Below, piece after piece: positions 13,658 to 59,864 of a DNA stretch of 64,000 nt. The stretch covers positions 1,632,001-1,696,000 of the forward strand of contig CAVZYA010000002.1 in assembly GCA_963779415.1 (NCBI GenBank), in the 5' to 3' direction. The translations under genes and the position numbers were made by a program. This DNA is from an uncultured Acidobacteriota bacterium (GTDB lineage Bacteria > Acidobacteriota > Thermoanaerobaculia > UBA5066). Under the pieces are notes generated by a model. It was not told the origin of the DNA. It saw only the letters and a program-made list of their open reading frames with translations, and searched no databases. Position 1 is the stretch's first letter, and every line of letters begins with the position of its first letter.

Positions 13658-13686
13658 GCACGGGGGTCACGACGGCACGGGGGTCA
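13658..13686. repeat. Direct repeat GCACGGGGGTCA x2 (period 17) at the left tip of the remnant element
   Basis: Copies at 13658-13669 and 13675-13686. Confidence 0.85.
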
Positions 13687-13952
13687 GGTCTTGCACCTTT
13701 AGTCTGCTGTCAGCAGTAAGCCGACCGGTTCGACTGGAGTTCCCCGGCGCTGTCTGGCACGTCACCTCTCGCGGCTACGAATGGCGGGACGTCTTTCGGG
13801 ACGATCGGGACCGGGAATGGTTTCTCACCGTCCTCGGCCGAGCCGATTCCCTCCGCCGCTGGCGACGCAAGGCCGACGCTCTTGAAGGAACCCGATAGGA
13901 TCTGGAAGGAGATCTCAGAAGGAGAGTAGAACAGAGGTGGAAGACCTGGCCA
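13681..13952 (+). mobile_element. Internally deleted Y1/RAYT-like element (MITE-like remnant) with imperfect terminal inverted repeats
   Basis: IR 13681-13708 vs 13925-13952 match at 21/28 by hand alignment and enclose a transposase N-terminal fragment. Confidence 0.8.
13716..13898 (+). pseudogene. Truncated Y1/RAYT-like transposase fragment (not in the ORF track)
   Basis: The GTA-start frame reads VSRPVRLEFPGAVWHVTSRGYEWRDVFRDDRDREWFLTVLGR...TR*. It is homologous to the N-termini at 15097 and 58868 and stops just before the HUH motif. Confidence 0.9.
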
Positions 13953-13986
13953 TCATGAACTCTCATGAACTATGCCCTCATGAACT
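13953..13986. repeat. TCATGAACT x3 direct repeats
   Basis: Copies at 13953, 13963 and 13978, immediately outside the right IR of the remnant. Confidence 0.85.
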
Positions 13987-14016
13987 ACGGGGTTTCGACA
14001 GAGTCGAGACGGGTTC

Positions 14017-14046
14017 TTGACAGCCTCGGGGAAATGCGGATAGATT
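14017..14046 (+). promoter_or_regulatory. sigma70-type promoter
   Basis: TTGACA (14017-14022)-18 nt-TAGATT (14041-14046) upstream of the 14119 CDS. Confidence 0.6.
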
Positions 14047-14118
14047 GCTTTCAAGAGATTATGGAAAGGGGAGGACCAGCTCTTCTCGCGGGTCTTCCCC
14101 GTACGAAGGGAGGAAGAG

Positions 14119-14985
14119 GTGAAAAAACTGATGGTGACCCTGTCGGCTCTGCTCCTGCTGGCAGGAGCCCAGAATGCGGTGGCGGCCACGTTTGCTGTCT
14201 GGCTGGACGGAAACGTCACCCCCGGCGGTGGCGGTAGCGGTATCCCCTCGAGTCTGGAACACGCCTTCGGCTCGGGATCTGTGACCCTGGTGACCACTGC
14301 ACAGCTGGAGACGCCCGGCTTCCTCAATGCGTTCGACGCCGTCGTCGTCAGCCGATACGACGCCGCCTTCGGCACCGCCTTGAGCCCGGCGGCAGCTGCC
14401 AACATCGTGACGTACGTCGGAACCGGTGCTGGCCAGGGGGGCGTCGCCATCTTCCCGAACGACCTCGCCGACAACCTCTACGGGGCGGCAACTGGTGACC
14501 CGTTCGATGCAAACCTGGACCGGCTGTTCACCAATGCCGCCACGTTCGCGGCCGCCAGCCATCATGGATTCATCGCCGAGTTCAATGGCGCGGTGATGGC
14601 CGTGACCTCGAACACGGCCGGGTGGCCCGCCATGGGCCTTCTTCCCGGCGCGGCGAACGCCGTTCACGGTGTCAGCACGCCCGACGGACATTTCCACTGG
14701 GACGTGGGACCCATCGGCTCGGATAATGCGATCGACGCCGGCGTCACCTTCCCGTTCACCGACGCTGATGTCACGCTTTTCCGGACCGACATCACCGGGG
14801 CTTCTTCGAGCAACATTGTCGACGTCTTCGACGACAACGGCCTGCCCGCCCTGCTGGCCAATCAAGTCGTCATCAACGGGGGGGGCGCTCTCGCGGTCCC
14901 GGCGCTGGACCCCATCGCACGGACGGTCTTCACCGGTCTCCTAGCGGCCGCCGGGTTCCTTCTCGTAAAGCGCATAGCCAGCTGA
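14119..14985 (+). CDS. Secreted protein with IPTL-CTERM/PEP-CTERM-like sorting tail
   Basis: Signal peptide MKKLMVTL...AVA; C-terminal AVPALDP + hydrophobic helix + KR. Confidence 0.8.
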   Translation: MKKLMVTLSALLLLAGAQNAVAATFAVWLDGNVTPGGGGSGIPSSLEHAFGSGSVTLVTTAQLETPGFLNAFDAVVVSRYDAAFGTALSPAAAANIVTYVGTGAGQGGVAIFPNDLADNLYGAATGDPFDANLDRLFTNAATFAAASHHGFIAEFNGAVMAVTSNTAGWPAMGLLPGAANAVHGVSTPDGHFHWDVGPIGSDNAIDAGVTFPFTDADVTLFRTDITGASSSNIVDVFDDNGLPALLANQVVINGGGALAVPALDPIARTVFTGLLAAAGFLLVKRIAS

Positions 14986-15006
14986 GCCGTCTGGCCGTAG
15001 GAGTCG

Positions 15007-15037
15007 AAGAGAGGGGGGCGGGGCCCCCCTTTTTCTT
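15007..15037 (+). terminator. Intrinsic terminator
   Basis: AGGGGGGC-GGG-GCCCCCCT followed by TTTTCTT. Confidence 0.8.
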
Positions 15038-15038
15038 G

Positions 15039-15068
15039 AGCGCGTTAGGGTCAAGCGCGTTAGGGTCA
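15039..15068. repeat. Tandem repeat AGCGCGTTAGGGTCA x2 at the left element tip
   Basis: Exact copies at 15039-15053 and 15054-15068. Confidence 0.9.
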
Positions 15069-16083
15069 GGTCCCATATCTGTAGTATACTGAGACGGTGA
15101 GCCGACCTCTCCGACTGGAATTCCCGGGTGCGGTCTGGCACGTGACCTGCCGCGGCAACGAGCGGCGGGAGGTCTTTCGCGACGACAGTGACCGCGAGCG
15201 TTTTCTCGGCGTTCTCGGCCGGACCGTCTCGCTCTTCCGCTTTCGGCTCCACGCCTACGTGTTGATGGGGAACCACTATCACCTGCTGGTCGAAACGCCG
15301 GAGCCGACACTCTCCCGCGGCATGCGCCAGCTCAACGGCGTCTATACGCAGGCCTTCAATCGGGCTCACCGGAGAGTGGGACATCTCTTTCAGGGTCGCT
15401 TCAAGGCCATCCTCGTCGAGAAGGAAGCCCACCTTCTCGAGCTCTGCCGGTACGTCGTGCTCAACCCTGTCCGTGCGGGGATCGTCCGAACCGCCAGGGG
15501 CTGGCCGTGGAGCAGCTACCGGGCGACGGCGGGCCTCGTGGAGTGCCCGGAGTGGCTCGAGACCGGCTGGACGCTCGAGCAGTTTGGAGGAACGCGGGTA
15601 AGGGCCCTGGAGGCCTACCGGCGATTCGTGTCAGACGGAAGACAAAGCGCCTACGAGCCCTGGAAGAGCATAGAGGGGCAGATCTTCCTCGGATCGAAGG
15701 AGTTTCGGAGAAGGACGATTCGGCAGGCGTTGGCGGGCCGAAAGAGCCGGGGAGTGCCGAAAGTCCAGCGTCTTGCGGCGTCCAGGAGCCGGGACGAGCT
15801 GTTTCGGGAATGCCTGGAGGCTCTCGGACGGGACCGGGAGAGCCTCGCGAGCCGGACGCGCCTTCTGGCGGAAGAGCGGAAGGCGGTGGCGGCGATCCTT
15901 CGGCGGCGGGGCCTGATGAAGCTGACGGAGATCGGGGGGTTGCTGGGGGTTGGAGAAGGACAGGCGGGGCTGATGGCGAAACAGGGCGAATCGGCTCTTC
16001 GGGAAGACACCGGCTTGAGGCGGCGGCTGGGAGAACTGGCCGACGAAGCTTCGGAGTAGACTGTAGAAATGGGACCTGACCCC
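15062..16083 (+). mobile_element. Y1/HUH RAYT-like element with 29-bp inverted repeats
   Basis: IR 15062-15090 vs 16055-16083 match at 24/29. The right IR overlaps the stop codon. Confidence 0.85.
15097..16059 (+). CDS. Y1 (HUH) tyrosine transposase, RAYT/TnpA_REP-like, with C-terminal HTH-like extension
   Basis: WHVTCRGNER, NHYHLL (HUH), GHLFQGRFK, RYVVLNPVRAG, WPWSSY. Confidence 0.92.
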   Translation: MSRPLRLEFPGAVWHVTCRGNERREVFRDDSDRERFLGVLGRTVSLFRFRLHAYVLMGNHYHLLVETPEPTLSRGMRQLNGVYTQAFNRAHRRVGHLFQGRFKAILVEKEAHLLELCRYVVLNPVRAGIVRTARGWPWSSYRATAGLVECPEWLETGWTLEQFGGTRVRALEAYRRFVSDGRQSAYEPWKSIEGQIFLGSKEFRRRTIRQALAGRKSRGVPKVQRLAASRSRDELFRECLEALGRDRESLASRTRLLAEERKAVAAILRRRGLMKLTEIGGLLGVGEGQAGLMAKQGESALREDTGLRRRLGELADEASE

Positions 16084-16130
16084 TCTGAGACTTGACCCCT
16101 CTGAGACTGACCCCTCTGAGACGCTGAGAC
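16077..16130. repeat. Tandem repeat TGACCCCTCTGAGAC x3 plus partial at the right element tip
   Basis: Copies at 16077-16091, 16093-16107 and 16108-16122; partial CTGAGAC at 16124-16130. Confidence 0.92.
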
Positions 16131-16141
16131 GAAGCCCGGAA

Positions 16142-16165
16142 CCAGAAAAAAGGAGACCTGAACCC
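16142..16165 (-). repeat. Solo end-motif copy
   Basis: Reverse complement GGGTTCAGGTCTCCTTTTTTCTGG resembles GGGTCAGGTCTCATTTTTCTGG at 58833. Confidence 0.7.
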
Positions 16166-16684
16166 GTGACCTGCAATCGACGCGCTGCATTCACCCGGAC
16201 GGCTTCGCTCCTTCTCGGAGCGCTCCTCGTCTCCTTCCCGGGGAGCCCGGCCCGGCCCGACGGGCCTGCTCCGCCTTCCGTGCCGGGCGACTCGTGGCCG
16301 GGCGCGGAGCGGATGACGCCGGAAGAGCTCGTTCGGATCCTCCGCTCCCCGGGCGCGGAGAAGCCGGCGATCTTTCACGTCGGGTTCCGCGTCCTCTTCG
16401 CGCAGGCGCACATCCCCGGGTCGCAGTACGCCGGGCCCGGGATGAAACAGGCGGGGCTCGACGCGCTTCGAAAGGCCGTCGCATCGACGGCGAAGACGAA
16501 ATTGATCGTCCTTTACTGCGGCTGCTGTCCGTGGGAACGTTGCCCGAACCTCGAGCAGCCGTGGAGGACACTCATGGCGGCCGGGTTCACTCGCGTGAAG
16601 GTCCTCTACATACCGAAGAACTTCGGCCAGGACTGGGTCCAGAAAGGCTACCCCGTGGAGGCGGGCGATCCGGGCCGTGGTTGA
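16166..16684 (+). CDS. Exported rhodanese-like domain protein
   Basis: HIPGS, IVLYCGCCPWERCPN, GFTRVKVL, W...GYPVE; signal-like N-terminus. Confidence 0.85.
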   Translation: MTCNRRAAFTRTASLLLGALLVSFPGSPARPDGPAPPSVPGDSWPGAERMTPEELVRILRSPGAEKPAIFHVGFRVLFAQAHIPGSQYAGPGMKQAGLDALRKAVASTAKTKLIVLYCGCCPWERCPNLEQPWRTLMAAGFTRVKVLYIPKNFGQDWVQKGYPVEAGDPGRG

Positions 16685-17201
16685 GAGAGCCGCCGGCACG
16701 GTCGCGCTCCTGCTCCGGGCCATGGCCTTCGCGGGTCTCCTCGCACCCGTCGCTCGCGGCGCCGATGCGCCTCCGCCGAAGATCGGCGGACCGGCGCCGA
16801 GGCTCGGGCTGGTCGACCTGGACGGAGCGCCGCTCGATCTGGCCTCGCTTCGTGGAAAGGTCGTCGTCGTCGATTTCTGGGCAACCTGGTGCGCACCGTG
16901 CCGCTCCCAGGTGCCTCGTTTCGTGGAGCTCCAGGCGAAGTACCGCGAGAAGGGTCTCGAGGTCGTCGGGATCTCTCTCGACGATTCTCCGGCGCCGGTT
17001 CGCGAGTTCCGCCGCCGGTACGGGATGACATATCGGGTCGCCCTCGGCGACGAGAAGGTGGCCGAGCGCTGGGGAGGAATCCTCGGGCTGCCCGTGGCCT
17101 TCGTCGTCGACCGGGCGGGGCGGCTTCGCGCCCGGCATGAGGGAGAGGGGGATCTCGCCGCCATCGAGCGGGATGTCGTTCGGCTGCTCGGGGAGAAGTG
17201 A
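16677..17201 (+). CDS. TlpA-family thiol-disulfide oxidoreductase
   Basis: LRGKVVVVDFWATWCAPC, GLPVAFVVDR. Confidence 0.92.
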   Translation: MVERAAGTVALLLRAMAFAGLLAPVARGADAPPPKIGGPAPRLGLVDLDGAPLDLASLRGKVVVVDFWATWCAPCRSQVPRFVELQAKYREKGLEVVGISLDDSPAPVREFRRRYGMTYRVALGDEKVAERWGGILGLPVAFVVDRAGRLRARHEGEGDLAAIERDVVRLLGEK

Positions 17202-17215
17202 CGCGGCAAGCGGCC

Positions 17216-17284
17216 GGAGGGTCAGGTCTTGCACCTGTAGTCTGCTGGCGGATTGAAGCGGGTCGCGCCTCTTTCTGACCCTCC
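17216..17284. repeat. Solo end-motif / REPIN-like inverted doublet
   Basis: 17219-17247 matches 13681-13709 at 28/29. GGAGGGTCAG (17216-17225) pairs with CTGACCCTCC (17275-17284). Confidence 0.8.
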
Positions 17285-17361
17285 CGACCCCTCGATTTAA
17301 TAGACTCAACGGTGAATTCACCGCCCAGGGGGGTGCCCCTGCCTGAAATCCAGAAAGGAGA

Positions 17362-18418
17362 TTGCTCGTGAGAGGAAACCTCGGCGTGAGCTTTGTTCTG
17401 GCTCTGGCCGTCGCGACGCTTCCGAAGGCGGCCAGCCCTCAGCAGGTCGAGAAGAAGGACTGTATCTTCCTTTCGAGCCTTCATCAGACGTCCCGCGGAA
17501 TGGGTTACTGGTACGACAAGAAGAACGGCGGCCTGGAGATCGCTCACCGGTGTTCCCTACTCGGAGTTGAGCTGCAAGAACTGTCACGTCGCCTCGTGCG
17601 ACGGCTGCCACAGGACGGAGATCGGGGGCAAAGCCGGGTATTCCACGAAGGCGGCGAAGGATCAGGGGCTCTGTCTGAAGTGCCACGGCCGCGAGGCCGC
17701 GACGATGAAGACGGACAAGGCCCAGAACCAGGTAGACGTCCACGTTCAGGCCGGCCTGCAGTGCATGGACTGTCACACGGGGAGCGACGTCCATGGCGAC
17801 GGCTCCGAGTACGCGTCGATGAAGCAGCCCGGGGCGATCGCCCCGAAGTGTGAAAACTGCCATGCAAAGGTGACCCGGAGCCTGTCGCACACGGTCCATT
17901 CCGGGAATCTCGACTGCAAGGCGTGCCACGTGCGCCAGGTCGTGAGCTGCACGAACTGTCACTTCGAAACGCTCGTCAAGACGGGCCAGCGTGTCTCCGT
18001 TCCCATGTCCGGCTGGATCTTCCTGATGAACGGAGACGGGAGGGTGACTTCGGCGAACATGCAGACGTTCGTCGTGCCGGGCAAGAAGACCTTCCTGATG
18101 TTCGCCCCCCAGTTCAGCCATTCCGTCACGAAGAACGGGAGGCGCTGCGAGGAGTGTCACGCCACGGAAGCGGCCGCGGAGGCCCGGTCGAAGAACGTGA
18201 AGCTTCTCTGGCTCGACAAGGGGGGAGTGCAGCAGGCCAAGGGCGTGATCCCCGTGGCGGCCGGCGCCCGTTACGGGCTCGTGTTCCAGGACTTTCAGGA
18301 CGGGAAGTGGAGCGTCATCGAGAATCCGGCGGAGCCGGTGATCCACTATGCCGGCTTTGGCGAACCGCTTTCGGACGCCCAGCTCGCGAAACTGGCGACG
18401 CCGCAGAAGATGAAGTGA
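17362..18418 (+). CDS. Periplasmic multiheme (8 x CxxCH) cytochrome c, with a frameshift near 17545
   Basis: Signal peptide and CIFLSSLH..GMGYWY in the 17362 frame. CKNCH, CDGCH, CLKCH, CMDCH, CENCH, CKACH, CTNCH, CEECH in the 17393 frame. Confidence 0.88.
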
Positions 18419-18432
18419 GGCCGGCGCCCCGG

Positions 18433-18945
18433 TCAGCGGGGCGCGGCCGCGGAGCCGTGGCGCTCGATCCCCCAGCGGACCATGTCGGTGGCGACGGGGG
18501 CGTGGCCGAGGCGGCGGACCATGGAGGAGATCTGGCCCCGGTGGTAGGTCTGGTGGTTGACGACGTGCCGGACGACGATCCCGAATTGGGCCGTCTTCAC
18601 CTCGCCGGAGAGGTTCTTCCACGAGAAGGGGCGGTCGAGCTTCTCTCGCGTCAGGGACTCGACGTGGGCGCGGTGCTTCGCGTGCGCGCGAAGAAGGACG
18701 GCGACCGCGTCTTCCAGCTTCGGGAGCGCGCTTTCCTTCGGCAGCACGAGGACGTCCGCCCCCGAGAAGCGGTCGGCCCATGCGTCGGTGGCGCCGGCGA
18801 GGTGGACGAAGGTGGCGCGGACGGAGGGCCAGCCGCCTCCCATCTCGCGGAGGTAGTCGGCTTCGGGGAGGGAGCGGAGCATCGTGATGACCCGCCCGTT
18901 CGCCCATTCGTTGTAGTCGTAGAGGGAGAGAAGCTCGACGCTCAC
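18433..18945 (-). CDS. DinB/YfiT-family protein
   Basis: YNEWAN, SVRATFVHL, HVVNHQTYHRGQ. The GTG start overlaps the FAH stop (GTGA). Confidence 0.9.
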   Translation of the reverse strand: MSVELLSLYDYNEWANGRVITMLRSLPEADYLREMGGGWPSVRATFVHLAGATDAWADRFSGADVLVLPKESALPKLEDAVAVLLRAHAKHRAHVESLTREKLDRPFSWKNLSGEVKTAQFGIVVRHVVNHQTYHRGQISSMVRRLGHAPVATDMVRWGIERHGSAAAPR

Positions 18946-19937
18946 CGCGAGGGGTCCTCCACGATGTCGTGCGTCAGGGTTCCGAGGCCGTCGATCGTCA
19001 GGCTGACCTGATCGCGGGCCTTGAGCCACTGGTTCTTCGTGACGCCCGAGCCGTTCAGCTCGAGGAAACAGCCGGTACCGACCGTTCCCGATCCGATCAC
19101 CTCGCCCGGCTCCAGCATGACGCCGTCGGCGGCGCGCTGGAGGATCTGGGCGAAGGTCCAGTTCATCCCGGAGAGGTCTCCGCGGCTCACGGTGACGCCG
19201 TTCACCTCGGCGGTCATGGCCGCGCGGACGACCATTCCGCGGGGCGAGGGGAAGAGTCGCCCCTCGGCGGCGAGGTCGTCCTTCGTGACGAGCCATGGAC
19301 CGAGGGCCGTTGCGAAGTCCTTCCCTTTCGCCGGGCCGAGGTTCAGCTTCATCTCCTCGGTCTGGAGGGCGCGTGCCGAGAAGTCGTTCATGACGCCGTA
19401 GCCGAAAATGGCGGCGTCCGCCTGCTCGAGGGTAGGGTTCAAGACGCTGCGCCCGACGACGCAGAAGGCCTCCAGCTCGAAATCCAGCTGCTCGAGACGA
19501 CGGCCCCCGACGCGGAGAAGGCCGGGCCCGATGACCGAGAGGTGATTGGAGAAGTAGAAGACGGGAAACTGGTCGAACTCCGGGATCATCGGGAGGCCGC
19601 GGTTCCGCCGCGCGGTCTCGACGTGCTGCCGGAAGGCGTAGCCGTCGCGAAGGGAGACGGGGCGCGGGATGGGGGCGAGAAGCTCGGCCCGCCGCGGGTC
19701 GAGCTGCGACTTGGAGGGAAGCTCGTCGGCCATCCCGACGAGGCCGCGGATCCGCCCGAGCCGGTCGTCCTGCTCGCGGATGACGTCGAGCATGGTGGTG
19801 CCGGAGAAGACGGAATCCACTTTCGCGAGGTCGAGGACGCGTCCGGTCTCGAGCACGACGCCGATGCGGGGCTTGCGGGAGACGATCCCCGAATCGGAGG
19901 CTTCGCTCAAGGTCGGCCGGAACGTCACCAGCCTCAC
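18942..19937 (-). CDS. Fumarylacetoacetate hydrolase family protein
   Basis: SLRDGYAFRQH, PVFYFSN, LDFELE, NDFSAR, KGKDFA, GSGTVGTGC. Confidence 0.92.
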   Translation of the reverse strand: MRLVTFRPTLSEASDSGIVSRKPRIGVVLETGRVLDLAKVDSVFSGTTMLDVIREQDDRLGRIRGLVGMADELPSKSQLDPRRAELLAPIPRPVSLRDGYAFRQHVETARRNRGLPMIPEFDQFPVFYFSNHLSVIGPGLLRVGGRRLEQLDFELEAFCVVGRSVLNPTLEQADAAIFGYGVMNDFSARALQTEEMKLNLGPAKGKDFATALGPWLVTKDDLAAEGRLFPSPRGMVVRAAMTAEVNGVTVSRGDLSGMNWTFAQILQRAADGVMLEPGEVIGSGTVGTGCFLELNGSGVTKNQWLKARDQVSLTIDGLGTLTHDIVEDPSR

Positions 19938-20020
19938 GGATCAAAGTTATACGCCTCCGGCGGGTGGCGGGAAATCCGGCTCTGCCCGGCCCCGCGTAGA
20001 GGGGGTGTGGGGGGAATCCG

Positions 20021-20371
20021 ATGACGACCGCTTCCATTGCCTCCAGCGTCCTGATTCCACGTCCGCCGCGCGACGTCTGGGACTCGCTGAAGCGCTCCGG
20101 CCGGCTGCCGGGGACGGTGCTCTCCGAGGCGCCCGCGGAACGCGTTCGCTTCGTCCACGAGGGGGTCCGCGGCTGGCTTCCGGTGGGGGACGTGGTCGGG
20201 GAGTACGTTCTCGAGCCGGCAGCCGAAGGGGTGAGACTCGATCTCTCCGTCACGGCTCTCGTCCCTGACGGGGACGCCGGCCTGAGGGTCCGGAGCCTCC
20301 TCTCGGGGTGGGTCTCGGGGTCGCTCGCCGCCCGGGCGGCGGAGCTTTCGCCGATCCGACCGGCGGCCTGA
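20021..20371 (+). CDS. Hypothetical protein (possibly SRPBCC/START-like)
   Basis: IPRPPRDVW N-terminal pattern; fills the gap between neighbouring genes. Confidence 0.5.
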   Translation: MTTASIASSVLIPRPPRDVWDSLKRSGRLPGTVLSEAPAERVRFVHEGVRGWLPVGDVVGEYVLEPAAEGVRLDLSVTALVPDGDAGLRVRSLLSGWVSGSLAARAAELSPIRPAA

Positions 20372-20416
20372 CGTCGAACTCGGGCGGCGCTAACATCGCC
20401 CCCGAGGTTTCGACAG

Positions 20417-23400: not shown

Positions 23401-23618
23401 GGGAGGGCGACGCGGGGGCCGCGATGGGAGGCGGGCCCGAGAAGCCTCTCCCGCCGGACCTGGAGGCGCTTCTCGCCGACCCGTACCGCGGGACGAGGAC
23501 ACGCTACCTCCCGCCCGGGACGTACACCGTCGAGATCCGCGCCGGGAAGGCGGCGTCCGCCACGACGCTCGAGGTGAAGCGGCCGAAGAGCGAATCCCGG
23601 CGGTTCGACGAGGACTGA
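20417..23618 (+). CDS. Secreted BNR/VPS10 (sortilin-like) beta-propeller glycosyl-hydrolase-like protein, about 3 frameshifts (near 21430, 21540 and 21875)
   Basis: Repeated S/TxDGGxT/SW Asp-box motifs, GPEIQGGRIVD, GGLQDNG, GTHGRS, distributed over consecutive frames. Confidence 0.85.
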
Positions 23619-23636
23619 CGCCGGAAGCCGTCGCCC

Positions 23637-24668: not shown

Positions 24669-24755
24669 TTCCCGCACCGGCGCGGAGTTGTCCGGCCCGG
24701 CGGGCAAGCTGAGACGAAATCTCGATTAATATCCGTTCATGAAGAGATCGACGAG

Positions 24756-30407
<5,652 letters not shown>

Positions 30408-47380: not shown

Positions 47381-47403
47381 GAGGAAGACTTGAGGCTTCC
47401 TCT

Positions 47404-47404: not shown

Positions 47405-50726
<3,322 letters not shown>

Positions 50727-50759
50727 GCGCGTCCTCTCCGGCCGATCCTACAACGAAAA

Positions 50760-50796
50760 ATGAGCCGTGGCTCATCGAAAATGAATGCCGGCTCAC
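50760..50796. promoter_or_regulatory. Putative tandem repressor operators upstream of fadB
   Basis: Perfect palindrome ATGAGCC-GT-GGCTCAT (50760-50775) and related ATGAATGCCGGCTCAC (50781-50796). Minus-strand -10 TAGGAT at 50745-50750. Confidence 0.55.
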
Positions 50797-50889
50797 CGCA
50801 TCCGGCCGGACGCCAGCGGGATGCGGAGGGCATCAGCGAAGCCAGGGAGCTTTCGCGGCAAGGCCTTGAAATCGCGATTGAGGTCCTGA

Positions 50890-53281
50890 TTAGTGCATTG
50901 CCAGCGGCGCCCCTTTCGGCAGCTTCACAGTGCGACAAATCCGCGCGAGGAGGTCGTCAAATCGTGGCTCTCCCCGGAAAAGGCCGAAGATCGGGTCGGT
51001 CGTGCACGCGAACGACAACATGGGCGTCCGCTCTTCGAACCCACGCTCCAGGGCGTGATAGGCATCCTTCTTCTCCCCCAGGCCCAGGTGGACGAGGGCG
51101 AGCTGGTAGGGCGACACGTAGCGGGCTTTCGAGAGGTCTTGGAGCTCGCGGAGGATCCGGCGGGAGTCGTCGCGCCGCCCCGCCTGCCCGTAGGCAAGGC
51201 CTAGGCAGGCGAGAAAGTTCAGATTCCGGCCCGAGGGCTCAATCGTCGCCTCGAAATCGGCGACGGCGCGCTGAGGCTTCCCTGCGGCCAGGTAGGCCTG
51301 CCCCTGATCCAGCGGACGAGGAAGTTACCTGGGCTCCGGGCAAGAGCCTGTCCGCACTCCTCAATCGCCCGGTCGAACCGGCGCTCGAAATTGAGAATCG
51401 CGCAGCCGTTGATGTCGTTCCATGGCGAGAACGGGTCAAGCTCGCGCGCAGTCTTCAGGTGCTCGCGCGCCTCGCCGAAACGGTCAAGGAAGAAATAGAG
51501 GAGCTGCGCGTACAAACCGTGTGCGGCCGCATATCCCGGCCGCAGCTCCAGGGCCTTCCGGTAATGACGCTCGGCGGCCTCCACGTCCCACTCCCCGTCC
51601 AGTGCGATCACGGCCCGGGCGTTATGAGCCTCCGGTAGGTGGTCGTCGAGCTCGAGGGCCTTTCGGGCCGCGCCGAGCGCTTCGTCCTGCACGGAGCCGG
51701 GCGGGACGAACTCGAAACCAGTTTCCGCCAGCGTCCACGTCGCCTCTGCCAGCCCCGCCCAGCCTGGTGCGTAAAGGGAGTCCAGCTCCGTCGCCCGCTT
51801 GAAGAAGTCGATCGCGGCCCGTAATTCTTTCTCGGTTGCTCCGTGCTCGAGGAGAGGCCGTCCCTTTAGCACGGCCTCGTAGGCTCCTGGGTCCACCTTC
51901 CGCTGGGAGGCAAGCCGCTGGCTTTCCTGCGGCGACACCTGCACCCGGATTTCGCTGGCGATGGCGCGCACCACCTCCCCTTGCAGCGCCAGTACATCCG
52001 TCATCTCGCGTTCGTAGTTGCTGGCCCAGAGGTGCCGGTCCTGCTGCGCGTTTATGAGCTGCGCCGTGATTCTGACTCGCGAGCCGGAGCGCACCACAGA
52101 GCCCTCGACGATCCCTTCGACCCCCAGTTCTCTTGCGATCTCGGAAATTGTCTTTTTCGAGTCCTTGTACTGCATCGCCGACGTCCGGGAGATCACCTTC
52201 AGGGCGCGGATCTGCGCGAGATCCGCGATGAGCGCATCCGTCATCCCGTCTGCGAAGAAGTCCTGAGAGGCGTCGCCGGAGTAGTTCTTGAGGGGAAGGA
52301 CGGCGAGGGACTGGATCGGTGTGGCGCCGGCGGGCTTCGATGCGAAAGGCTTCAGGACGAGCACGATGGCGGCCGCCGCCAGTAGGGCTGCCGCGAGCGC
52401 GGCGATCAAGACCCAGCGCCTCCTCGCGACAGGCTGCGATGGCGGTGTTGCCATAGCCAGCGCACCGGGCCGGGTCCTCAGCTCCTCGGCCAGGTCCGAA
52501 AGCTCGTGCCGAAGATCGCGAGCCGACTGGATGCGCGCGCGCGGGTCCTTTTCGAGACAGTGCTCGACGATCCTGACGTAGGCGGCCGGGAGGTCGGTCC
52601 GGATCCCTTCGAGCGGCGGAGGGTCTTCCTTGAGGATGGAGGCGGCGATCTCGGCTCCGGTCGCCCCCGTGAAGGGCCGCCGGCCGCTCGCCAGCTCGTA
52701 GAGCAATGCGCCGAAGGAGAAGATGTCAGCCCGCGCGTCGGCCTTCTCGCCCCGAAGCTGCTCCGGAGCCATGTAGGGCACCGTGCCGAAGATGTTCCCT
52801 GCCGCCGTCAGCGCCTCCGTCACCGACTCGGTGTGGAGGGACGGCGAAGATGACGGAGCCGAGACCCGGGCGAGGCCGAAGTCGAGAATCTTCGGCGGCC
52901 CTCGTCGTTGACCATCACGTTTCCCGGCTTGAGGTCCCTGTGAACGACGCCGCGGGCGTGGGCGGCGGCGAGGGCGTCGGCGATCGGGATCGCCCAGTCG
53001 AGGATCTTCTTCAAAGAAAGCCCGCCCGGCTCGATCAGCTCCGAGAGCGCCCGGCCCTGTATCCGCTCCATCGCGAGGAAGCGGATGCCGCCGGCTTCCT
53101 CGATGCCATAGAGCGTGACGATGTTCGGGTGATTGAGGGCGGCGACGGCCTTTGCCTCGCGCTCGAAGCGGGCGAGGCGGTCGGGATCAGCGGCCACCTC
53201 GGACCGAAGGATCTTCAAGGCGACAAGGCGGTCGAGACGCGTGTCCCGAGCCTCGTAAACCTCCCCCATCCCTCCGGCACC
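50890..53281 (-). pseudogene. Ser/Thr kinase-TM-TolB-like/TPR protein, 5'-truncated and frameshifted
   Basis: GAGGMGEVY, VALK, HRDLKPGN, DFGLAR, YMAPEQ, SLAVLPL..FADGMTD, TPRs, spread over at least 3 frames. No start codon seen before the Gly-rich loop. Confidence 0.75.
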
Positions 53282-53346
53282 GGGTCCGGACGCGGGCGTA
53301 GACTTTCGTCGGGAAGCCGGAGAGGCTGACCCGGCGAGGTGAAGTC

Positions 53347-53562
53347 ATGGCCGAGAGCGTCTACAAGATCATCGAGCTCGTCGGTACGAGCAAGGAGTCG
53401 TGGGAAAAGGCCGCGGCGGCGGCCGTGGCGGTCGCGTCGAAGAGCCTTCGCGACCTCCGGATCGCCGAGGTCTGCCAGCTCGACATGCAGGTCGAGGGAG
53501 GAAAGGTCACCGCTTACCGGGCGAAGGTCAAGGTCTCCTTCAAGTACACGCCCGGGAAGTGA
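53347..53562 (+). CDS. Dodecin (flavin-binding protein)
   Basis: SVYKIIELVGTSKESWEKA...YRAKVKVSFKY. Confidence 0.93.
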   Translation: MAESVYKIIELVGTSKESWEKAAAAAVAVASKSLRDLRIAEVCQLDMQVEGGKVTAYRAKVKVSFKYTPGK

Positions 53563-55005
53563 GTGCCGCGTCTCGCTGACGGCGCCACGACAGGCGGGAC
53601 GGGAAGCGCCCGGCTCGAGCGGCGGCTCGGGGCGTGGGACGGGGCGCTCCTGACCATCGGATCGGTCGTCGGGACGGGGATCTTCCTCACGACCGGAGAC
53701 ATGGCGAAGGCCCTGCCGCACGCGGGGCTGATCCTCCTCGTCTGGCTCCTCGGAGGGCTCCTCACCCTCGCGGGCGCCCTCACCTACGCCGAGCTGGGAG
53801 TCCTCTTCCCGCGTGCGGGCGGCATCTACCATTTCCTCAAGGAAGCCTTCGGCCCGTTCGTCGGCTTCCTCTACGGCTGGACCTCGTTCGTCGTGATCAT
53901 GTCGGGGGGGGTCGCGGCGATCGCCGTCGGATTCGGGGAGTACTTCGGGGCTTTCGTCCCGGCCTTCGCCCCCGCGCGGCTCCTCGTCGAGATTCCCCTC
54001 GGTCCCCTCACGTGGAAGATCGCCGGGCCGCAGGCCTCGGGCGCGATCGCGATCCTTCTCCTGACGCTTCTCAACCACGCCGGCCTTCGCGAAGGGGCGG
54101 CCGTGCAGAACTTCCTCACCGTGGCGAAAGGGGGCGCGCTCCTCGTCCTCGCCCTTCTCGGGCTCGGGGGGATCGGCGCCGTCTGGCACGCGGCCACCGC
54201 GCCGGTCGACCTCTCCCTGCGAATGCTCATCGCCGGTCTCGGCAGCGCGATGGTCGCCTCGCTCTGGACGTACGACGGGTGGTACGCGCTGACGCTCTCG
54301 GCGGGCGAGGTGCGAAACCCTTCGCGCGACCTTCCCCGAGGCCTCGTCGGCGGGACGGCGGCGGTCGTGGCGCTCTACCTCCTCGTCAACCTGACGTACC
54401 TCCGGGCCCTCCCGATCGACCAGCTCGGCCGGACGACGCGCGTGGCCGAGGCGGCCGCCGAGGCGCTGCTGGGGCCGGCGGGCGCCCGGCTCGTCACCGC
54501 GACGATCGCCGTCTCCATGCTCGGCTGCCTCGCCGCGACGATCCTCTACGCCTCGCGCCTCTACGTGCCGATGGCCGAGGACGGGGTCTTTTTTGCGGCG
54601 GCGGGGCGTGTCGATCCGGTGCGCCATACCCCCACCGGCGCTCTCTGGATGCAGGGGGTCTGGAGCGCCCTTCTCGCGGCGACGGGCGGGTACCGCTCGC
54701 TCTACACGTGGGCCACTTTCGCGGTCGTCCTCTTCAACGTGGCCGGCGGGACGGCCCTCTTCGTCCTCCGACGCACGAGACCCGATGCCGACCGCCCGTA
54801 CCGTGCGTGGGGCTATCCGGTCGTTCCGGCGTCGTTCCTCCTCGCCTGCCTCGCTCTCACCGTCGCCACTCTCTTCCAGAGCCCGGTCGAATCGGGTTTG
54901 GGCCTCGCCGTCGTGGCCTCGGGCGTGCCGGCGTGGCTCTGGTGGCGGAGGCCGAAGGGACGGCGTCCCGCGGCGCTTGACAGGCCGAGAGGCGGCAATC
55001 AATAG
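53563..55005 (+). CDS. APC-family amino acid permease
   Basis: GSVVGTGIF, AELG..FPRAGG, YDGW, EVRNPSRDLP, RPYRAWGYP; about 12 TM helices. Confidence 0.93.
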   Translation: MPRLADGATTGGTGSARLERRLGAWDGALLTIGSVVGTGIFLTTGDMAKALPHAGLILLVWLLGGLLTLAGALTYAELGVLFPRAGGIYHFLKEAFGPFVGFLYGWTSFVVIMSGGVAAIAVGFGEYFGAFVPAFAPARLLVEIPLGPLTWKIAGPQASGAIAILLLTLLNHAGLREGAAVQNFLTVAKGGALLVLALLGLGGIGAVWHAATAPVDLSLRMLIAGLGSAMVASLWTYDGWYALTLSAGEVRNPSRDLPRGLVGGTAAVVALYLLVNLTYLRALPIDQLGRTTRVAEAAAEALLGPAGARLVTATIAVSMLGCLAATILYASRLYVPMAEDGVFFAAAGRVDPVRHTPTGALWMQGVWSALLAATGGYRSLYTWATFAVVLFNVAGGTALFVLRRTRPDADRPYRAWGYPVVPASFLLACLALTVATLFQSPVESGLGLAVVASGVPAWLWWRRPKGRRPAALDRPRGGNQ

Positions 55006-55034
55006 TCGTCGAAAGAGAGAAAGCGGAGATCCTT

Positions 55035-55679
55035 TTGTACGCAGAGATGCAGGAAGCCGTCGTCCAGGGGGATGCGGCCCGGGCGAGGAGGCTGGCCGAA
55101 GCCGTCGTGAACGGCGGGGGGGACCTCGTCGCGGCGATCGAGCAGGGGTTCGCCGCCGGGATCCGGAAGGTGGGTGACCTCTGGGAAGAAGGAGAGTACT
55201 TCCTTCCCGAGCTGGTCCAGGGTGCAGAGGCGATGAAGGCCGCCATGGGGGTCCTCCAGCCCGCGCTTCGGAAAGCCCACGGCGCGAAGGCCTCGAAGGG
55301 GCGGGTCGTCATCGGCACGGTTCAGGGAGACCTCCACGACATCGGGAAGACCCTCGTCGCAACGCTCCTTTCGGCGGGGGGGTTCGAGGTGGACGACCTC
55401 GGCAGCGACGTCCCCGTCGACCGCTTCCTCGCACGGGCAAAGGAAAACGGCGCCGACATCATCGCCGCCTCGGCCCTCCTGACCACCACCATGCCGGTCC
55501 AGAAAGCGATCGCCGAAGGGATCCCGTCCCTTGGGCTCGCCCCGCAGCCCCGGCTTCTCGTCGGTGGCGCGCCGACGACGGCGGCCTGGGCTGCGGAGAT
55601 CGGCGCGGGCTGGGCGGAGAACGCCCTTCGCGCCGTCGCGGTGGCCGAGGCGCTCGTGAACTCCGCCCGGCGCGCGTGA
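55035..55679 (+). CDS. Corrinoid (B12-binding) protein, MttC/MtbC-like
   Basis: Cap domain YFLPELV; GDLHDIGK (DxHxxG), SALLTTT, VGGAP. Exact start uncertain. Confidence 0.92.
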   Translation: MYAEMQEAVVQGDAARARRLAEAVVNGGGDLVAAIEQGFAAGIRKVGDLWEEGEYFLPELVQGAEAMKAAMGVLQPALRKAHGAKASKGRVVIGTVQGDLHDIGKTLVATLLSAGGFEVDDLGSDVPVDRFLARAKENGADIIAASALLTTTMPVQKAIAEGIPSLGLAPQPRLLVGGAPTTAAWAAEIGAGWAENALRAVAVAEALVNSARRA

Positions 55680-56566
55680 ACGCCTTCGCCGAGCGCCTGC
55701 GCCTCCGCGAGACGACCCTCCTGGACGGGGGCCTCGGTAGCCTGCTCATCGCGCGGGGGCTCGCTCCGGGCGCGGCGCCCGAGTCGTGGGTCCTTTCGCG
55801 CCCCGACGACGTCCGCCGCGCGCACGGCGACTACGCTTCCGCCGGGAGCGACGCGGTTCACGCGGCGACTTTCGGGGCGAACCCGATCCGTCTCGCGAGG
55901 TTCTCTCTGGCCGACCGGTGCGAGGCCGTGAACGGAGAGGCCGTCCGGCTGGCCCGTGAGTCCGGCGCGCGTTTCGTCCTGGCGGACGTCGGCCCGACGG
56001 GCGAGTACCTCCCTCCGGTCGGGACGGGCGACCCGCAAGCCTGGAGAGCCGCGTTCCTTCGGCAGGGGCGGGCGCTGGCCGCAGCCGCGCCGGACGCTCT
56101 CCACGTCGAGACGATGACGGACCTGCGCGAGGCCCTGATCGCGCTCGAAGCCCTTCACGAAACCGCGCCGTCGCTCGCCGTGCTGGTCTCGCTGACCTTC
56201 GAGAAGAAGAAGCGGGGCTTCTTCACGATCATGGGGGACCCGCTGGCGAAATCGCTCCGGACGCTCGCCGAAGCCGGGGCCGTCGCCGTCGGCGCGAACT
56301 GCACGCTCGCGAGCGGAGAGATGCGGCCTCTCGCCGAGGAGGCCCGGGCTGCCGTGGATCTGCCTCTCGTCATCCAGCCCAATGCAGGGTCGCCGGAGAT
56401 GCGGAACGGCTCGGTCTTCTACTCGCAGTCGCCCGAGGCCTTCGCCGAGGAGATGGCGTTCGTTGCATCTCTCGGCGTCGAGCTGGTGGGGGGATGCTGC
56501 GGAACCGACCCTCGCTTCATACGTGCCCTCGGGAACCGCCTCGACTCGAAGAGGCCCCGGCCGTGA
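55676..56566 (+). CDS. Homocysteine S-methyltransferase domain protein (stand-alone MetH Hcy domain)
   Basis: LLDGG, TFGAN, ETM, and Zn ligands GANC and GGCCGT; PNAG. Confidence 0.92.
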   Translation: MNAFAERLRLRETTLLDGGLGSLLIARGLAPGAAPESWVLSRPDDVRRAHGDYASAGSDAVHAATFGANPIRLARFSLADRCEAVNGEAVRLARESGARFVLADVGPTGEYLPPVGTGDPQAWRAAFLRQGRALAAAAPDALHVETMTDLREALIALEALHETAPSLAVLVSLTFEKKKRGFFTIMGDPLAKSLRTLAEAGAVAVGANCTLASGEMRPLAEEARAAVDLPLVIQPNAGSPEMRNGSVFYSQSPEAFAEEMAFVASLGVELVGGCCGTDPRFIRALGNRLDSKRPRP

Positions 56567-57297
56567 CCGGTCTCCGCGAGCAGGACAAGAAGCCCCCTGC
56601 CGCCGTCTCCAACCCGGGGCCTCCTGTGATCGTCCCTTCGATTCGGCTCTCCATCCTGGAGAGCGACGTCCTCCACTTCCTCGGCTATCCGAAGGGGCGG
56701 CGGCCGGCGGCTCGGCTCGAGCCCGTTCTCGAAGGCGTCCTTCGCGAAGCGAGAAAGCTCGCCGCCGCGCGCGGCGCGTTCCGGACGCTGCCCGTCTCCT
56801 CGGCCGCCGAAATCGGGCTGGAGGAGGAGGAGGCCGACGGGCTCGTTCTCGGCCTCGTCACTGCGGGGGGTGGGATCGAGCGGCGCGTGACGGAGCTTCT
56901 CGGCCGGGGAGAGGATTCCCGCGCCCTCCTGCTGGATGCCGCCGGAAGCGCCGCTGCCGAGGAAGCCGCGAACCGGCTGAGCGTCAGGGTCGTCGGCGGC
57001 AGGAGAGACGGGGACCTCGACGTCGGCTGTCGGGTCAGTCCCGGATACGGCCGCTGGCCCCTCTCTGCCCAGAAAGCCCTTCTCGCGCGTCTCCCTCACG
57101 AGACGCTCGGCGTGTCGCTTAATCCTTCGATGATGATGACTCCACGCAAGTCGATCTCCTTCGCCCTCTGGCTCGGCGCGAAAAGGGCGCCGAGGTCCGG
57201 GCTCTCGGGATGCGACACGTGCGGCCTGCCGCACTGTCGCTACCGCCGCTCCGCCGGGGGCAGGAGATCACGTTCTTCCCGCGAGGTGACGAGTTGA
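56563..57297 (+). CDS. B12-dependent methionine synthase activation-domain protein
   Basis: LLDAAGSAAAE, SPGYG.WPL..Q, MMTPRKSIS, C-terminal CDTCGLPHCRYR. Confidence 0.85.
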   Translation: MTGLREQDKKPPAAVSNPGPPVIVPSIRLSILESDVLHFLGYPKGRRPAARLEPVLEGVLREARKLAAARGAFRTLPVSSAAEIGLEEEEADGLVLGLVTAGGGIERRVTELLGRGEDSRALLLDAAGSAAAEEAANRLSVRVVGGRRDGDLDVGCRVSPGYGRWPLSAQKALLARLPHETLGVSLNPSMMMTPRKSISFALWLGAKRAPRSGLSGCDTCGLPHCRYRRSAGGRRSRSSREVTS

Positions 57298-58757
57298 TGG
57301 CATCGCAAGTGAGGCCCACGGTTTCCCTCCTCTCTTCCGACGACGTCGAGACCATCGTCCAGGAAGCCTGTGACGTCCTCTCCGAAACGGGAGTTCTCGT
57401 CGAGAACCATGACGGACGGCTCCTTCTCCGGGACGGGGGAGCCACGGAAGCCAGCGGTCGCTTCAGGATTCCGGAGGCCATGGCTCGCCGGGCGCTGGCG
57501 ACGGTTCCGCCGCGCATCGAGCTTTTCGACCGGGACGGCGCTCCCGCGATGGACCTGGGCGGAGACCGAGTCCACTTCGATCCCGGCTCGGCGGCCATCC
57601 ACCTCTTCGACGCCTCCACGCGGCGGCGCCGGGCGATCTCGACCCGCGACGTCGTCCGGTTCGCCCGCCTCGTCGACGGCCTGCCGAACTACGCCGCCCA
57701 GTCGACGGCCCTGACGCCGGGCGACGTCCCGGGCGAGGTGGCGGACCGGTACCGCCTCTACCTGATTCTCCGCTCTGCCCGCAAGCCGGTGGTCACCGGC
57801 ACCTTCAGGAAGGACGGCTTCGCCCCGATGCGCGAATTGCTCCTCGCCGCGCGTGGGAGCGACACCGAGCTGAGGCGCCGTCCGCTCGCCATCTTCGACT
57901 GCTGCCCCAGCCCTCCGCTGAAATGGAGCGACCTGACCGGACAGGCGCTCGTCGACTGCGCCCGCTCGGGGATCCCCGCGGAGCTGGTCTCCATGCCGCT
58001 GGCGGGCGCCACCTCGCCGGTCACCCTTCGCGAGGCGGTCGTCCAGCAGTGCGCGGAGAACCTGAGCGGTGTCGTCATCCACCAGCAGGCGGCTGCCGGC
58101 TCGCCGCTGATCTGGGGCGGCTCGCCCGCGGCGATGGACATGCGCCACGGCACGACCCCGATGGGCGCCGTCGAGACGATGATGATCGACCTCGCCGCGT
58201 CGCAGGTGGGGAAGCGGCTCGGCCTCCCGACGCACGCCTACATGGGGCTGTCGGACTCGAAGTGTCCCGACTATCAGGCGGGCTTCGAAAGCGGGATCGG
58301 AACGATCCTCGCGGCGCTGGCCGGCATCAACGTCGTCTCGGGCCCCGGAATGCTCGACTTCGAGATCTGTCAGTCGTTCGAGAAGCTCCTTCTGGATCAC
58401 GACGTCTGCGGCATGGCGCTGCGGCTCGTCCGCGGGATCGACCACCGCGAGGGGGATGCCGCCGCCCTGATCCGGCAGGTCGTCGAGTCGTCCGAGTTCC
58501 TCTCGCACCCCCACACCCGGAAACACTGGAGGGAGGAGCTGACCGTCCCGTCGGGGCTCGTGGCCCGCGACACGTACGGCGACTGGGAGGCCCGTGGCGC
58601 GCCCTGGGCTCACGAGGAGGCCGCGAAGGAGGTCGAGCGCCGGCTCTCGAAGTGCCCGCCCCGCCCCCCGTCGCCCGACGTGACGCACGCTCTCGACGGG
58701 ATCATGCGGCACGAGGTCCGCGCCGCCGGCCTCTCGGAGCTCCCCTCCCTCGAGTGA
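57297..58757 (+). CDS. Trimethylamine methyltransferase (MttB) superfamily, non-pyrrolysine
   Basis: PSPPL, PLAGATSPVT, AENLSG, MDMRHG, HAYMGLSDSK, QAGFE, GPGML, FLSHPHT. No in-frame TAG. Confidence 0.92.
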   Translation: MASQVRPTVSLLSSDDVETIVQEACDVLSETGVLVENHDGRLLLRDGGATEASGRFRIPEAMARRALATVPPRIELFDRDGAPAMDLGGDRVHFDPGSAAIHLFDASTRRRRAISTRDVVRFARLVDGLPNYAAQSTALTPGDVPGEVADRYRLYLILRSARKPVVTGTFRKDGFAPMRELLLAARGSDTELRRRPLAIFDCCPSPPLKWSDLTGQALVDCARSGIPAELVSMPLAGATSPVTLREAVVQQCAENLSGVVIHQQAAAGSPLIWGGSPAAMDMRHGTTPMGAVETMMIDLAASQVGKRLGLPTHAYMGLSDSKCPDYQAGFESGIGTILAALAGINVVSGPGMLDFEICQSFEKLLLDHDVCGMALRLVRGIDHREGDAAALIRQVVESSEFLSHPHTRKHWREELTVPSGLVARDTYGDWEARGAPWAHEEAAKEVERRLSKCPPRPPSPDVTHALDGIMRHEVRAAGLSELPSLE

Positions 58758-58766
58758 TCCCGTCAA

Positions 58767-58794
58767 AGCCGTCGGGGTCAAGCCGTCGGGGTCA
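58767..58794. repeat. Tandem repeat AGCCGTCGGGGTCA x2 at the left element tip
   Basis: Exact copies at 58767-58780 and 58781-58794. Confidence 0.9.
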
Positions 58795-59840
58795 GGCACC
58801 AATTTTCTATTATACGAAACGGACGATCCGAAGGGTCAGGTCTCATTTTTCTGGTATTCTGTAAGGCATGAGCCGTCCCCTTCGACTCGAGTTCGCCGGA
58901 GCCCTCTGGCACGTCACTTCCCGCGGGAATGAGAAGCGGGAGATCTTCCGCGACGAGGCGGACCGCGAGATGTTCCTCGCGATCCTCGGCCGGACGGTCG
59001 GCCTGTTCCGCTGGACGCTCCACGCGTACGTCCTCTTGGGAAACCACTTTCACCTCCTCGTCGAGACGCCGGAGCCGACGCTCTCGCGCGGGATGAGGCA
59101 GCTGAACGGCCTCTATACGCAGGCCTTCAACCGCCGACACCGGCGTGTCGGGCATCTGCTTCAAGGACGCTTCAAGTCCGTCCTCGTCGACAAGGAGACG
59201 CACTTCCTCGAACTCTCCCGGTACCTCGCTCTGAACCCGGTCCGGGCGGGGGCCGCCCGCTCGGCCCGCGCCTGGCCCTGGAGCAGCTACCGCGCGACCG
59301 CCGGCCTTGCTGCGGCGCCGGCATGGCTGGAGACCGACGCGACCCTCCGGCGTTTCGGGGCGAAGAAGGGCCCGGCCGAGGAGGCGTACCGGAAGTTCGT
59401 CGCCGACGGGAAGAACTCCGGGTACGACCCCTGGGAGCAGGTACAGGGACAGGTCTATCTCGGATCGGACGATTTCGTCGAGGCGGCCGAGAGGCGCGCC
59501 GAGGGACGCGGGGAGGCAGGGAAAGCGCGCCGTCCGCGACTCGTGCGATCGGGCTCGCTTTCCGAGCGGCTCGAGGAGGGGGCGGAGCGCCTCGGGGTTT
59601 CTCTGGAGGAGATGAAGCAGCATCCCCGTTGGCACATCCGCGAGCGGCGTCTCCTCGCGTGGGACGTCCGGCGGCGCGGCCTCTTCCGCCTTCAGGAGAT
59701 CGGCGCGGCGCTCGGCGTCGGGGCCGCCCAGGTCTCGGTGCTCATCCGGGGAGGCGAAGCGCTGGCCGCCTCCGGAGACCGCCTTGCACGGAAGCTCCTT
59801 ACCGGCCGGCCGCTATAATTGAAAATAGGTACCTGACCCC
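58788..59840 (+). mobile_element. Y1/HUH RAYT-like element with 28-bp inverted repeats and a second inner left motif
   Basis: IR 58788-58815 vs 59813-59840 match at 24/28. Extra GGGTCAGGTCTC motif at 58833. Confidence 0.85.
58868..59818 (+). CDS. Y1 (HUH) tyrosine transposase, RAYT/TnpA_REP-like
   Basis: WHVTSRGNEK, NHFHLL, GRFKS, RYLALNPVRAG, WPWSSY. Paralog of the 15097 CDS. Confidence 0.92.
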   Translation: MSRPLRLEFAGALWHVTSRGNEKREIFRDEADREMFLAILGRTVGLFRWTLHAYVLLGNHFHLLVETPEPTLSRGMRQLNGLYTQAFNRRHRRVGHLLQGRFKSVLVDKETHFLELSRYLALNPVRAGAARSARAWPWSSYRATAGLAAAPAWLETDATLRRFGAKKGPAEEAYRKFVADGKNSGYDPWEQVQGQVYLGSDDFVEAAERRAEGRGEAGKARRPRLVRSGSLSERLEEGAERLGVSLEEMKQHPRWHIRERRLLAWDVRRRGLFRLQEIGAALGVGAAQVSVLIRGGEALAASGDRLARKLLTGRPL

Positions 59841-59864
59841 CGTCCTTTGACCCCTGTCCTTTGA
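59834..59864. repeat. Tandem repeat TGACCCCYGTCCTT x2 at the right element tip
   Basis: Copies at 59834-59847 and 59848-59861, then TGA. Confidence 0.88.

Follow-up and report, generated by a model that had tools for sequence, protein, structure and literature searches.

Tandem duplications with a fixed inner boundary at the tips of TIRtron transposons

The ends of TIRtrons, transposons that encode the HUH transposase TIRYT, often carry short tandem duplications of the element tip and its adjoining flank. We describe these duplications starting from a 64,000-nucleotide stretch of an uncultured Acidobacteriota bacterium of the Thermoanaerobaculia (GenBank assembly GCA_963779415.1, contig CAVZYA010000002.1, positions 1,632,001 to 1,696,000), referred to below as the window. 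Most duplicated units begin, read outward, on the same base, the T of GACC|TGACCC. The tip duplications are real and widespread, and on balance we think it probable that the arrays are scars of cycles in which TIRYT nicks its own tip, a polymerase extends the free end and the strand is rejoined. The kind of element and this chemistry are already published; for the footprint at the tip we found no earlier report.

Tip arrays in the window

All five direct repeats described by a first-pass annotation of the window are present, with periods of 17, 15, 16 then 15 (three copies), 14 and 14. That annotation had counted six element ends, five of them with arrays; the arrays stand, but two further ends (17219 and 58833), neither with a tip duplication, had been overlooked. 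Its sixth, degenerate end with a threefold repeat fits as well, as a terminal repeat and an adjoining three-copy array that have both decayed: GAAGACC-TGGCCA is followed by copies of TCATGAACT at 13953, 13963 and 13978, the third preceded by a degenerate tip, TGCCC. The features are as follows.

13653..13686, tip array at the left end of the broken element, 2 x 17 nt, copies 15/17 identical
13681..13708, forward strand, left terminal repeat (GGGTCAGGTCTTGCACC...) of the broken element, profile score 26.8
13716..13895, forward strand, 5' remnant of a TIRYT gene, whose product is 69% identical to the intact one across 59 residues before a stop intervenes
13922..13990, reverse strand, decayed right terminal repeat and decayed three-copy array (TCATGAACT), recognised by eye, with a score under the profile threshold
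15039..15068, tip array of two identical 15-nt copies, with a short-read record across it
15063..15090, forward strand, left terminal repeat of element 1, 24/29 bases matching the right repeat
15097..16059, forward strand, TIRYT gene of element 1, 320 aa, supported by Pfam, NCBIfam, alignment and fold match
16055..16082, reverse strand, right terminal repeat of element 1, with the presumed nick placed between 16076 and 16077 (C|TGACCC)
16077..16122, tip array of three copies (16, 15 and 15 nt)
17219..17290, forward strand, gene-less mini element made of a terminal repeat that lacks a tip duplication and a degenerate partner with terminal TGACCC at 17276
58767..58794, tip array of two identical 14-nt copies
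58789..58860, forward strand, two tandem left terminal repeats 44 nt apart, the outer at 58789 and the inner, without tip duplication, at 58833
58868..59818, forward strand, second TIRYT gene, 316 aa, with HFH and Y---NP motifs
59812..59839, reverse strand, right terminal repeat of element 2
59834..59861, tip array of two 14-nt copies with a single mismatch

In the three-copy array at 16077..16122, the T that opens the next copy belongs to the inner unit, a pattern that two events in succession would leave. Since the assembly consists of three contigs and its method is not stated, such repeats might be suspected of being assembly artefacts. However, 151-nt short-read records (three public runs of one study, possibly the source study, with contigs at a depth of 2-3) match 13571-13721 and 15030-15180 with 0 differences and 0 gaps, the latter record reaching only 9 nt past the outer copy. 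The arrays at 13653-13686 and 15039-15068 are thus spanned unchanged, which refutes the artefact reading for these two, and the same pattern appears in many independent assemblies. Nor do the repeats behave as target-site duplications, as the first-pass annotation had already argued: each end of an element has its own unit, and the two copies of a unit sit on the same side. Taken together, an origin by misassembly or target-site duplication appears close to negligible.

The elements are TIRtrons

Both intact open reading frames (ORFs; 15097-16059 and 58868-59818) matched Y1_Tnp (PF01797) in a Pfam search. The two proteins are 58.5% identical to each other; the first scores 85.7 bits on NF047646 (REP-associated tyrosine transposase, RAYT; cut-off 80) and the second 73, just under the cut-off. 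They carry the motifs NHYH...RYVVLNP and NHFH...RYLALNP, respectively, and in an alignment H60 and H62 are nearly invariant and Y119 is invariant; it lies within Y---NP, a class-2 signature according to Quentin et al. 2018. The structure predicted for the 320-aa protein (pLDDT 86) has as its best fold match E. coli TnpA-REP (4ER8; E 8e-8, root-mean-square deviation (rmsd) 1.9 A over 148 columns) and includes a C-terminal helical domain (232-314) resembling a helix-turn-helix (HTH), with a weak fold match to the DnaA DNA-binding domain (3PVP; E 0.015, rmsd 2.3); the Pfam search of the two proteins returned no HTH match. Both genes lie between terminal inverted repeats of 27-29 bp, with 24/29 bases complementary and tips reading RGGGTCAG. 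The source genome holds four full or nearly full TIRYT genes and several remnants, and the closest titled relatives among the matches listed are Acidobacteriota, many of them Thermoanaerobaculia.

On the basis of the HUH/Tyr core, the HTH tail and the terminal repeats (GGGGTCAG), the elements are TIRtrons and their transposases TIRYT, RAYT subclass 2.1. TIRtrons and TIRYT were described by Di Nocera, De Gregorio and Rocco in 2013 (PMC3733652), with the consensus tip GGGGWSAS, and Quentin et al. 2018 (PMC6006769) equate TIRYT with TnpA-Y1 subclass 2.1, which they report in 14.9% of strains. The reference of the first-pass annotation to IS200/IS605 is not supported: the proteins are 320 and 316 aa long and carry Y---NP, and the NF033573 score is 13.8 bits (cut-off 55). 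No GTAG hairpin, a trait of REPtrons (RAYT groups 2 and 3), was seen in the flanking sequence read without folding.

Tip duplications are enriched at element ends and widespread

In the source genome (4.36 Mb, 92% complete, three contigs), we defined 42 ends solely from the sequence inside the tip, 34 by profile and 8 by pattern. A strict duplication test, requiring a second GACCC 9-30 nt further out and then at least 5/6 matching flank bases, was passed by 15/42 of these ends and by 4/1,606 other GGGTCA sites (Fisher p = 3e-22), so that tip arrays are clearly commoner at element ends than at other occurrences of the motif; a looser test gave 17/42 and 8/1,606. The genome contains 57 perfect tandem duplications with a period of 12-21, 9 of them at listed tips. 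Twelve of the perfect 12-21-nt duplications have a period that is not a multiple of three, and 7 of these are at listed tips; by eye, 4 of the other 5 adjoin tip-like sequence.

Beyond the source genome, the best 80 of at least 607 related loci from species-representative genomes yielded 70 with a scorable end, and 25/132 gene-linked ends, in 22 loci, were duplicated. Records with a duplicated end come from Acidobacteriota, Nitrospira, Gamma- and Betaproteobacteria, delta-proteobacterial groups, Mariprofundaceae, Thermotogae and Bipolaricaulia. In a second sample of Acidobacteriota, partly picked for multi-copy genomes, 6/58 ends were duplicated, among them ends with the variant tip TGTCCC; a metagenome scan gave 82/144, which is no frequency since that set was preselected for two tips 14-21 nt apart. 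Because kin are not independent, all these end counts are descriptive. That arrays can grow long is seen at locus L240 (1340-1654), where a 16-nt tip unit is repeated 19 times in a satellite interrupted by a scaffold gap, so that its true length is uncertain. The plasmid search gave 1 of 72,556 records and the phage search none of 50,697, so neither offered a series of insertions.

Junction anatomy: a fixed inner and a loose outer boundary

Taking the ends of the source genome and the gene-linked family ends as unselected sets, units read from the inside outward begin on the T of GACC|TGACCC in 28/40 duplications (84/122 over all sets). Four of the remaining unselected units begin one base later, 4 extend 1-2 bases inward, which is compatible with chance, and 4 reach further inward. 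The same start emerges from a count of exact repeats of at least 9 nt that did not presuppose a start base: 11/42 ends in the source genome and 16/132 gene-linked ends start at the T of C|TGACCC, against 0/1,606 controls, with a smaller peak 5 nt further out (2 and 7 ends, respectively), also after GACC. A unit boundary fixed on a C|T step is what would be expected from a RAYT-type nick, and it agrees with the earlier proposal of nicking at or near the tip. Unit length in the unselected sets is 12-19 nt in 35/36 and 14-17 nt in 29/36, and over 99 junctions the join is flush with the last templated base in 79.

The outer boundary lies 13-18 nt out in 15/18 clean junctions, and 15-16 nt out in two 98.7% identical element copies in genome G003. 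A pyrimidine stands at its -2 position in 84/99 junctions, against a background of 0.59 (p = 3e-8), including 12/12 in the source genome and 58/68 in the preselected metagenome set.

Two minor classes accompany the tip duplications. Flank-only duplications occur at 6/42 ends of the source genome and 12/132 gene-linked ends, compared with 23/1,606 controls; a requirement for C before them was rejected, as 20/29 is not clearly different from 11/23 in controls. Long tandem copies, with a period of about 23-115, comprise the repeat body and the same 5-16 nt of flank, and their joins are often flush or show a 1-nt overlap. As a separate observation, a 13-nt duplication lies just inside a tip of the source genome (C2:1157068; TGGAATAGGTGCC twice before TGACCC), the sole inward case in the census.

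Flank carried along with copied elements

In genome G003, two whole-element copies are 98.7% identical over 1,027 bp, and their identity continues 10 nt beyond the left tip and 9 nt beyond the right before unrelated DNA begins. All four neighbouring sequences are found intact nearby, the left and right neighbours derive from different places, and the joins are flush or overlap by 1 nt. Three copies in G352 (94-96% identical) share 7-13 nt of flank on the right and 3-8 on the left, and a pair in G363 shares 8 nt. A 14-nt tip duplication is present in only one of the two G003 copies, and a duplication likewise in one member of the G363 pair; its restriction to one member of two such shared-flank pairs (G003; L419/L420) indicates that it was gained after copying. 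Counter-examples are pairs at 90-95% identity in different genomes (L377/L379 and L391/L395/L422) and the within-locus pairs L208 and L213, which share at most a few bases. Flank is thus carried in recent copying and turns over fast, on the basis of four genomes, and, judged from these sequences, the far boundary looks like the real moving edge of the element, as near-identical copies share 6-13 nt past the tip. The earlier description of each unit as holding the site's own flank therefore holds in part: near-identical copies at different places can share that flank.

Carried flanks among the solo repeats of G021, a genome of the same family, were not supported, with 12 pairs sharing at least 6 bases against 7.5 expected, within the range of shuffles. 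In this genome, base composition just outside the tips is skewed, with C followed by A/G and then T, and C again in fifth position, possibly reflecting a target preference. The window's own elements allowed no empty-site comparison, as congeners lack synteny beside them. Of five sites tried in genus g2, two could be aligned: 3/3 congeners lack a 60-bp paired repeat at the corresponding position, and 1/2 alignable ones lacks a solo repeat. No target duplication was visible there, and with 85-90% identity the edges are not fixable.

Several rearranged or conserved neighbourhoods deserve a record of their own. The region L375:7500-17300 of G003 holds two near-identical TIRtrons, a variant repeat family (GGGGTCGGGTCTCAATTATCAATTAT), several fragments duplicated from a single host gene, a truncated RHS-repeat gene copy and fragments resembling IS3, and looks like a hot spot of end-made rearrangement. 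Perfect palindromes of ~60 bp, consisting of two terminal repeats head to head, occur at L031, L040, L041, L043 and L069 (G021, G014); in some of them the inverted symmetry reaches 4-7 nt past the tips (CATCTTC on both sides at L069), which hints at fold-back copying of a solo repeat with its flank. In two sets of loci (L197/L198/L203/L223 and L206/L209/L216/L221), TIRtrons are kept in the same gene neighbourhood across species, and the 5-12 nt adjoining the tip differ in nearly every genome. Within the window, a 288-aa ORF between the two left elements (14119-14985) begins like a signal peptide, has a C-terminal tail that is hydrophobic and basic, and had no match in Pfam or NCBIfam.

A candidate mechanism and its alternatives

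The first-pass annotation knew of no described mechanism for such arrays; one had in fact been proposed. For the amplification of bacterial interspersed mosaic elements (BIMEs), Ton-Hoang 2012 (PMC3333891, Fig. 7B) put forward the same chemistry, namely a nick, extension by a polymerase and attack of the 3'-OH on the tyrosine-bound 5' phosphate, and a related rolling-circle model appeared in Nunvar 2010. RAYTs cleave the C|T step, stay linked to the T through a phosphotyrosine and can join it to a 3'-OH supplied from outside (Corneloup 2021, PMC8266576). We infer the enzymatic steps at TIRtron tips by analogy. TIRYT would bind the 27-bp terminal repeat, probably via its HTH tail, nick the outward-reading strand at GACC|TGACCC and, if RAYT chemistry applies, stay on the 5' T through Tyr119. 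A host polymerase would then extend the 3'-OH outward and displace the protein-bound strand, and a 3' end would arise 12-21 nt out, either because the polymerase lets go or because a second cut of loose specificity falls after a pyrimidine-N step. Attack of this far 3' end on the phosphotyrosine would write the stretch from the T to that point twice, and repeated cycles would build arrays, whose copy number might then record past activity, as the first-pass annotation proposed. Were the far 3' end joined elsewhere, the product could be a longer tandem copy with repeat body, or a moved element with 6-13 nt of its old flank.

Several observations weigh against this proposal. A tandem duplication looks the same whichever of its boundaries was nicked. 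The attacking 3' base must be C for E. coli TnpA-REP (Corneloup 2021, PMC8266576), whereas, if the polarity proposed here is right, C precedes the outer TGACCC in only 16/99 junctions, so the far boundary is a misfit with the E. coli enzyme. That boundary is a C|T step in only 4/79, and a second C|T cut there was rejected on either strand (4/79 and 4/79). The pyrimidine at -2 is not significant in the unselected GTDB subset (14/19, p = 0.2), and long duplications re-enter the element at non-CT sites, which the proposal explains only with extra cuts. In G021, whose repeats are homogeneous, 0/56 ends are duplicated, against 15/42 in the source genome (p = 5e-7); its repeats are more alike (identity 0.85 vs 0.63) and may be young, or its host or enzyme may differ. 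Finally, the parts of the TIRtron and RAYT literature that we consulted contain no biochemical or in vivo data for subclass 2.1.

An opposite polarity would account for the minor classes more simply. Here the enzyme would make its nick within the flank, on the inward-reading strand and 6-15 nt beyond the tip, and hold that 5' end. Synthesis would run inward as from an IS91-like donor strand and would mostly end, by a halt or a cut, after GGGTCA, in some cases sooner or deep inside the element, and rejoining would follow. A single nick rule would then cover tip, flank-only and long duplications, the flush or 1-nt-overlap joins of long duplications at variable inner points would follow, and moved copies do begin at the far boundary. 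However, this requires a nick nearly independent of sequence together with a stop that in most events falls on one and the same base, and it is on the other strand that the fixed boundary coincides with the known C|T step of RAYTs. We regard this polarity as unlikely.

Dedicated synthesis might also be unnecessary, if at a replication fork the enzyme cut the two sister strands, one at the far site and one at C|T, and exchanged them. RAYTs recombine two cleavage sites in vitro (Ton-Hoang 2012, PMC3333891), and both sides of 12/14 long-duplication junctions follow a pyrimidine-N step against 7.6 expected (p = 0.014), under a rule chosen after the data were seen. The far site, however, is not a C|T step, and such an exchange predicts reciprocal products, that is, ends lacking TGACCC and flank. 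We hold strand exchange of this kind to be distinctly improbable.

Host slippage or repair, provoked by bound protein or by the repeat sequence itself, would need no HUH catalysis. The tip sequence GACCT GACCC already forms a 5-nt direct repeat, slipped bases occur within some units, and the strong dependence of the rate on the genome, as between the source genome and G021, could be a host trait. Slippage does not, however, give flush junctions free of microhomology, a single dominant start base, a solely outward direction or so narrow a range of lengths, and control GGGTCA sites lack duplications. The mostly flush junctions in particular are unlike microhomology slippage and favour nicking, extension and rejoining; we give slippage or repair little credence. 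Ku-type end joining is likewise not needed, as Ku had no match in the source genome or in 21/22 genomes with a duplicated end (many of them incomplete, and kin not independent), and we rejected it as a requirement. Separately, Ku was present in 1/22 genomes with a duplicated end and 8/20 without (Fisher p = 0.008), which is no more than a lead, the negatives being hand-picked and partly kin.

Implications

How RAYT-type repeats move and multiply in living cells is unresolved according to Corneloup 2021 (PMC8266576), and neither a cleavage site nor an assay for subclass 2.1 was found in the TIRtron and RAYT literature consulted. The scars give predictions at the level of single bases for this subclass, concerning strand, nick site, far boundary and product, and correspond to the sort of product expected in genomes under the 2012 nick-extend-rejoin model, which makes both directly testable. 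They further suggest that tandem repeats, small satellites and rearrangements have a local source in many bacterial phyla.

A more tentative idea, which we find possible yet on the doubtful side, is that TIRtrons are double-ended HUH transposons of a kind not yet described, with true edges some 15 nt further out than the C|T nick, past the repeat that can be seen. If so, each end would be handled separately, and a 3' end made in the flank would be joined near any terminal repeat. On the move, an element would take along a small piece of flank that changes each time, and would rearrange the genes around it; tip arrays would be self-targeted events. One enzyme and a host polymerase would then form a sequence-addressed writer of tandem repeats, which would have made most of the non-coding short perfect duplications of the source genome.

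Comparison with known systems

IS200/IS605 elements (TnpA of IS608 and ISDra2) share the Y1 HUH fold and the lack of a target-site duplication, but differ by hairpin ends, where these elements have terminal inverted repeats, by a short protein and by Y---Q. The published TIRtrons agree in having a Y1 gene between terminal inverted repeats with GGGGWSAS tips, a C-terminal HTH and genome-wide solo and paired repeats; tip duplications, a cleavage site and carried flanks are not in the main texts of PMC3733652 and PMC6006769. In what we saw of the TIRtron and RAYT literature, neither the duplications nor their boundary rule nor the carried flank was found, though Fig. 9 and the additional files of Di Nocera could show cases, and a search on the motif itself and on HUH nicking with duplication gave nothing relevant. 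Whether the RAYT/REP model already explains the arrays thus has a divided answer: the chemistry is published in the BIME model, whereas the tip footprint is not reported in the parts consulted.

The REPIN tandem clusters of Pseudomonas (Bertels and Rainey 2011, PMC3116915) resemble the long class, with element and flanks in tandem near RAYT targets; unlike the tip arrays, their units are about 100 bp or more with whole REPINs, and the sections consulted report no fixed nucleotide boundary. Close in proposed chemistry are BIMEs and E. coli TnpA-REP (PMC3333891, PMC8266576), with a C|T nick, a 5'-phosphotyrosine, priming from the 3'-OH and a new 3'-OH that adds a tandem unit; for TIRtrons, the likeness in cleavage would lie in the coincidence of duplication starts with C|T. 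TIRtrons differ from them in lacking the GTAG hairpin, in a 12-21-nt unit that usually leaves out the recognition body, and in a far boundary that is neither a C|T step nor ends in C. TIRYT, moreover, has an HTH tail, and whole gene-bearing TIRtrons are copied.

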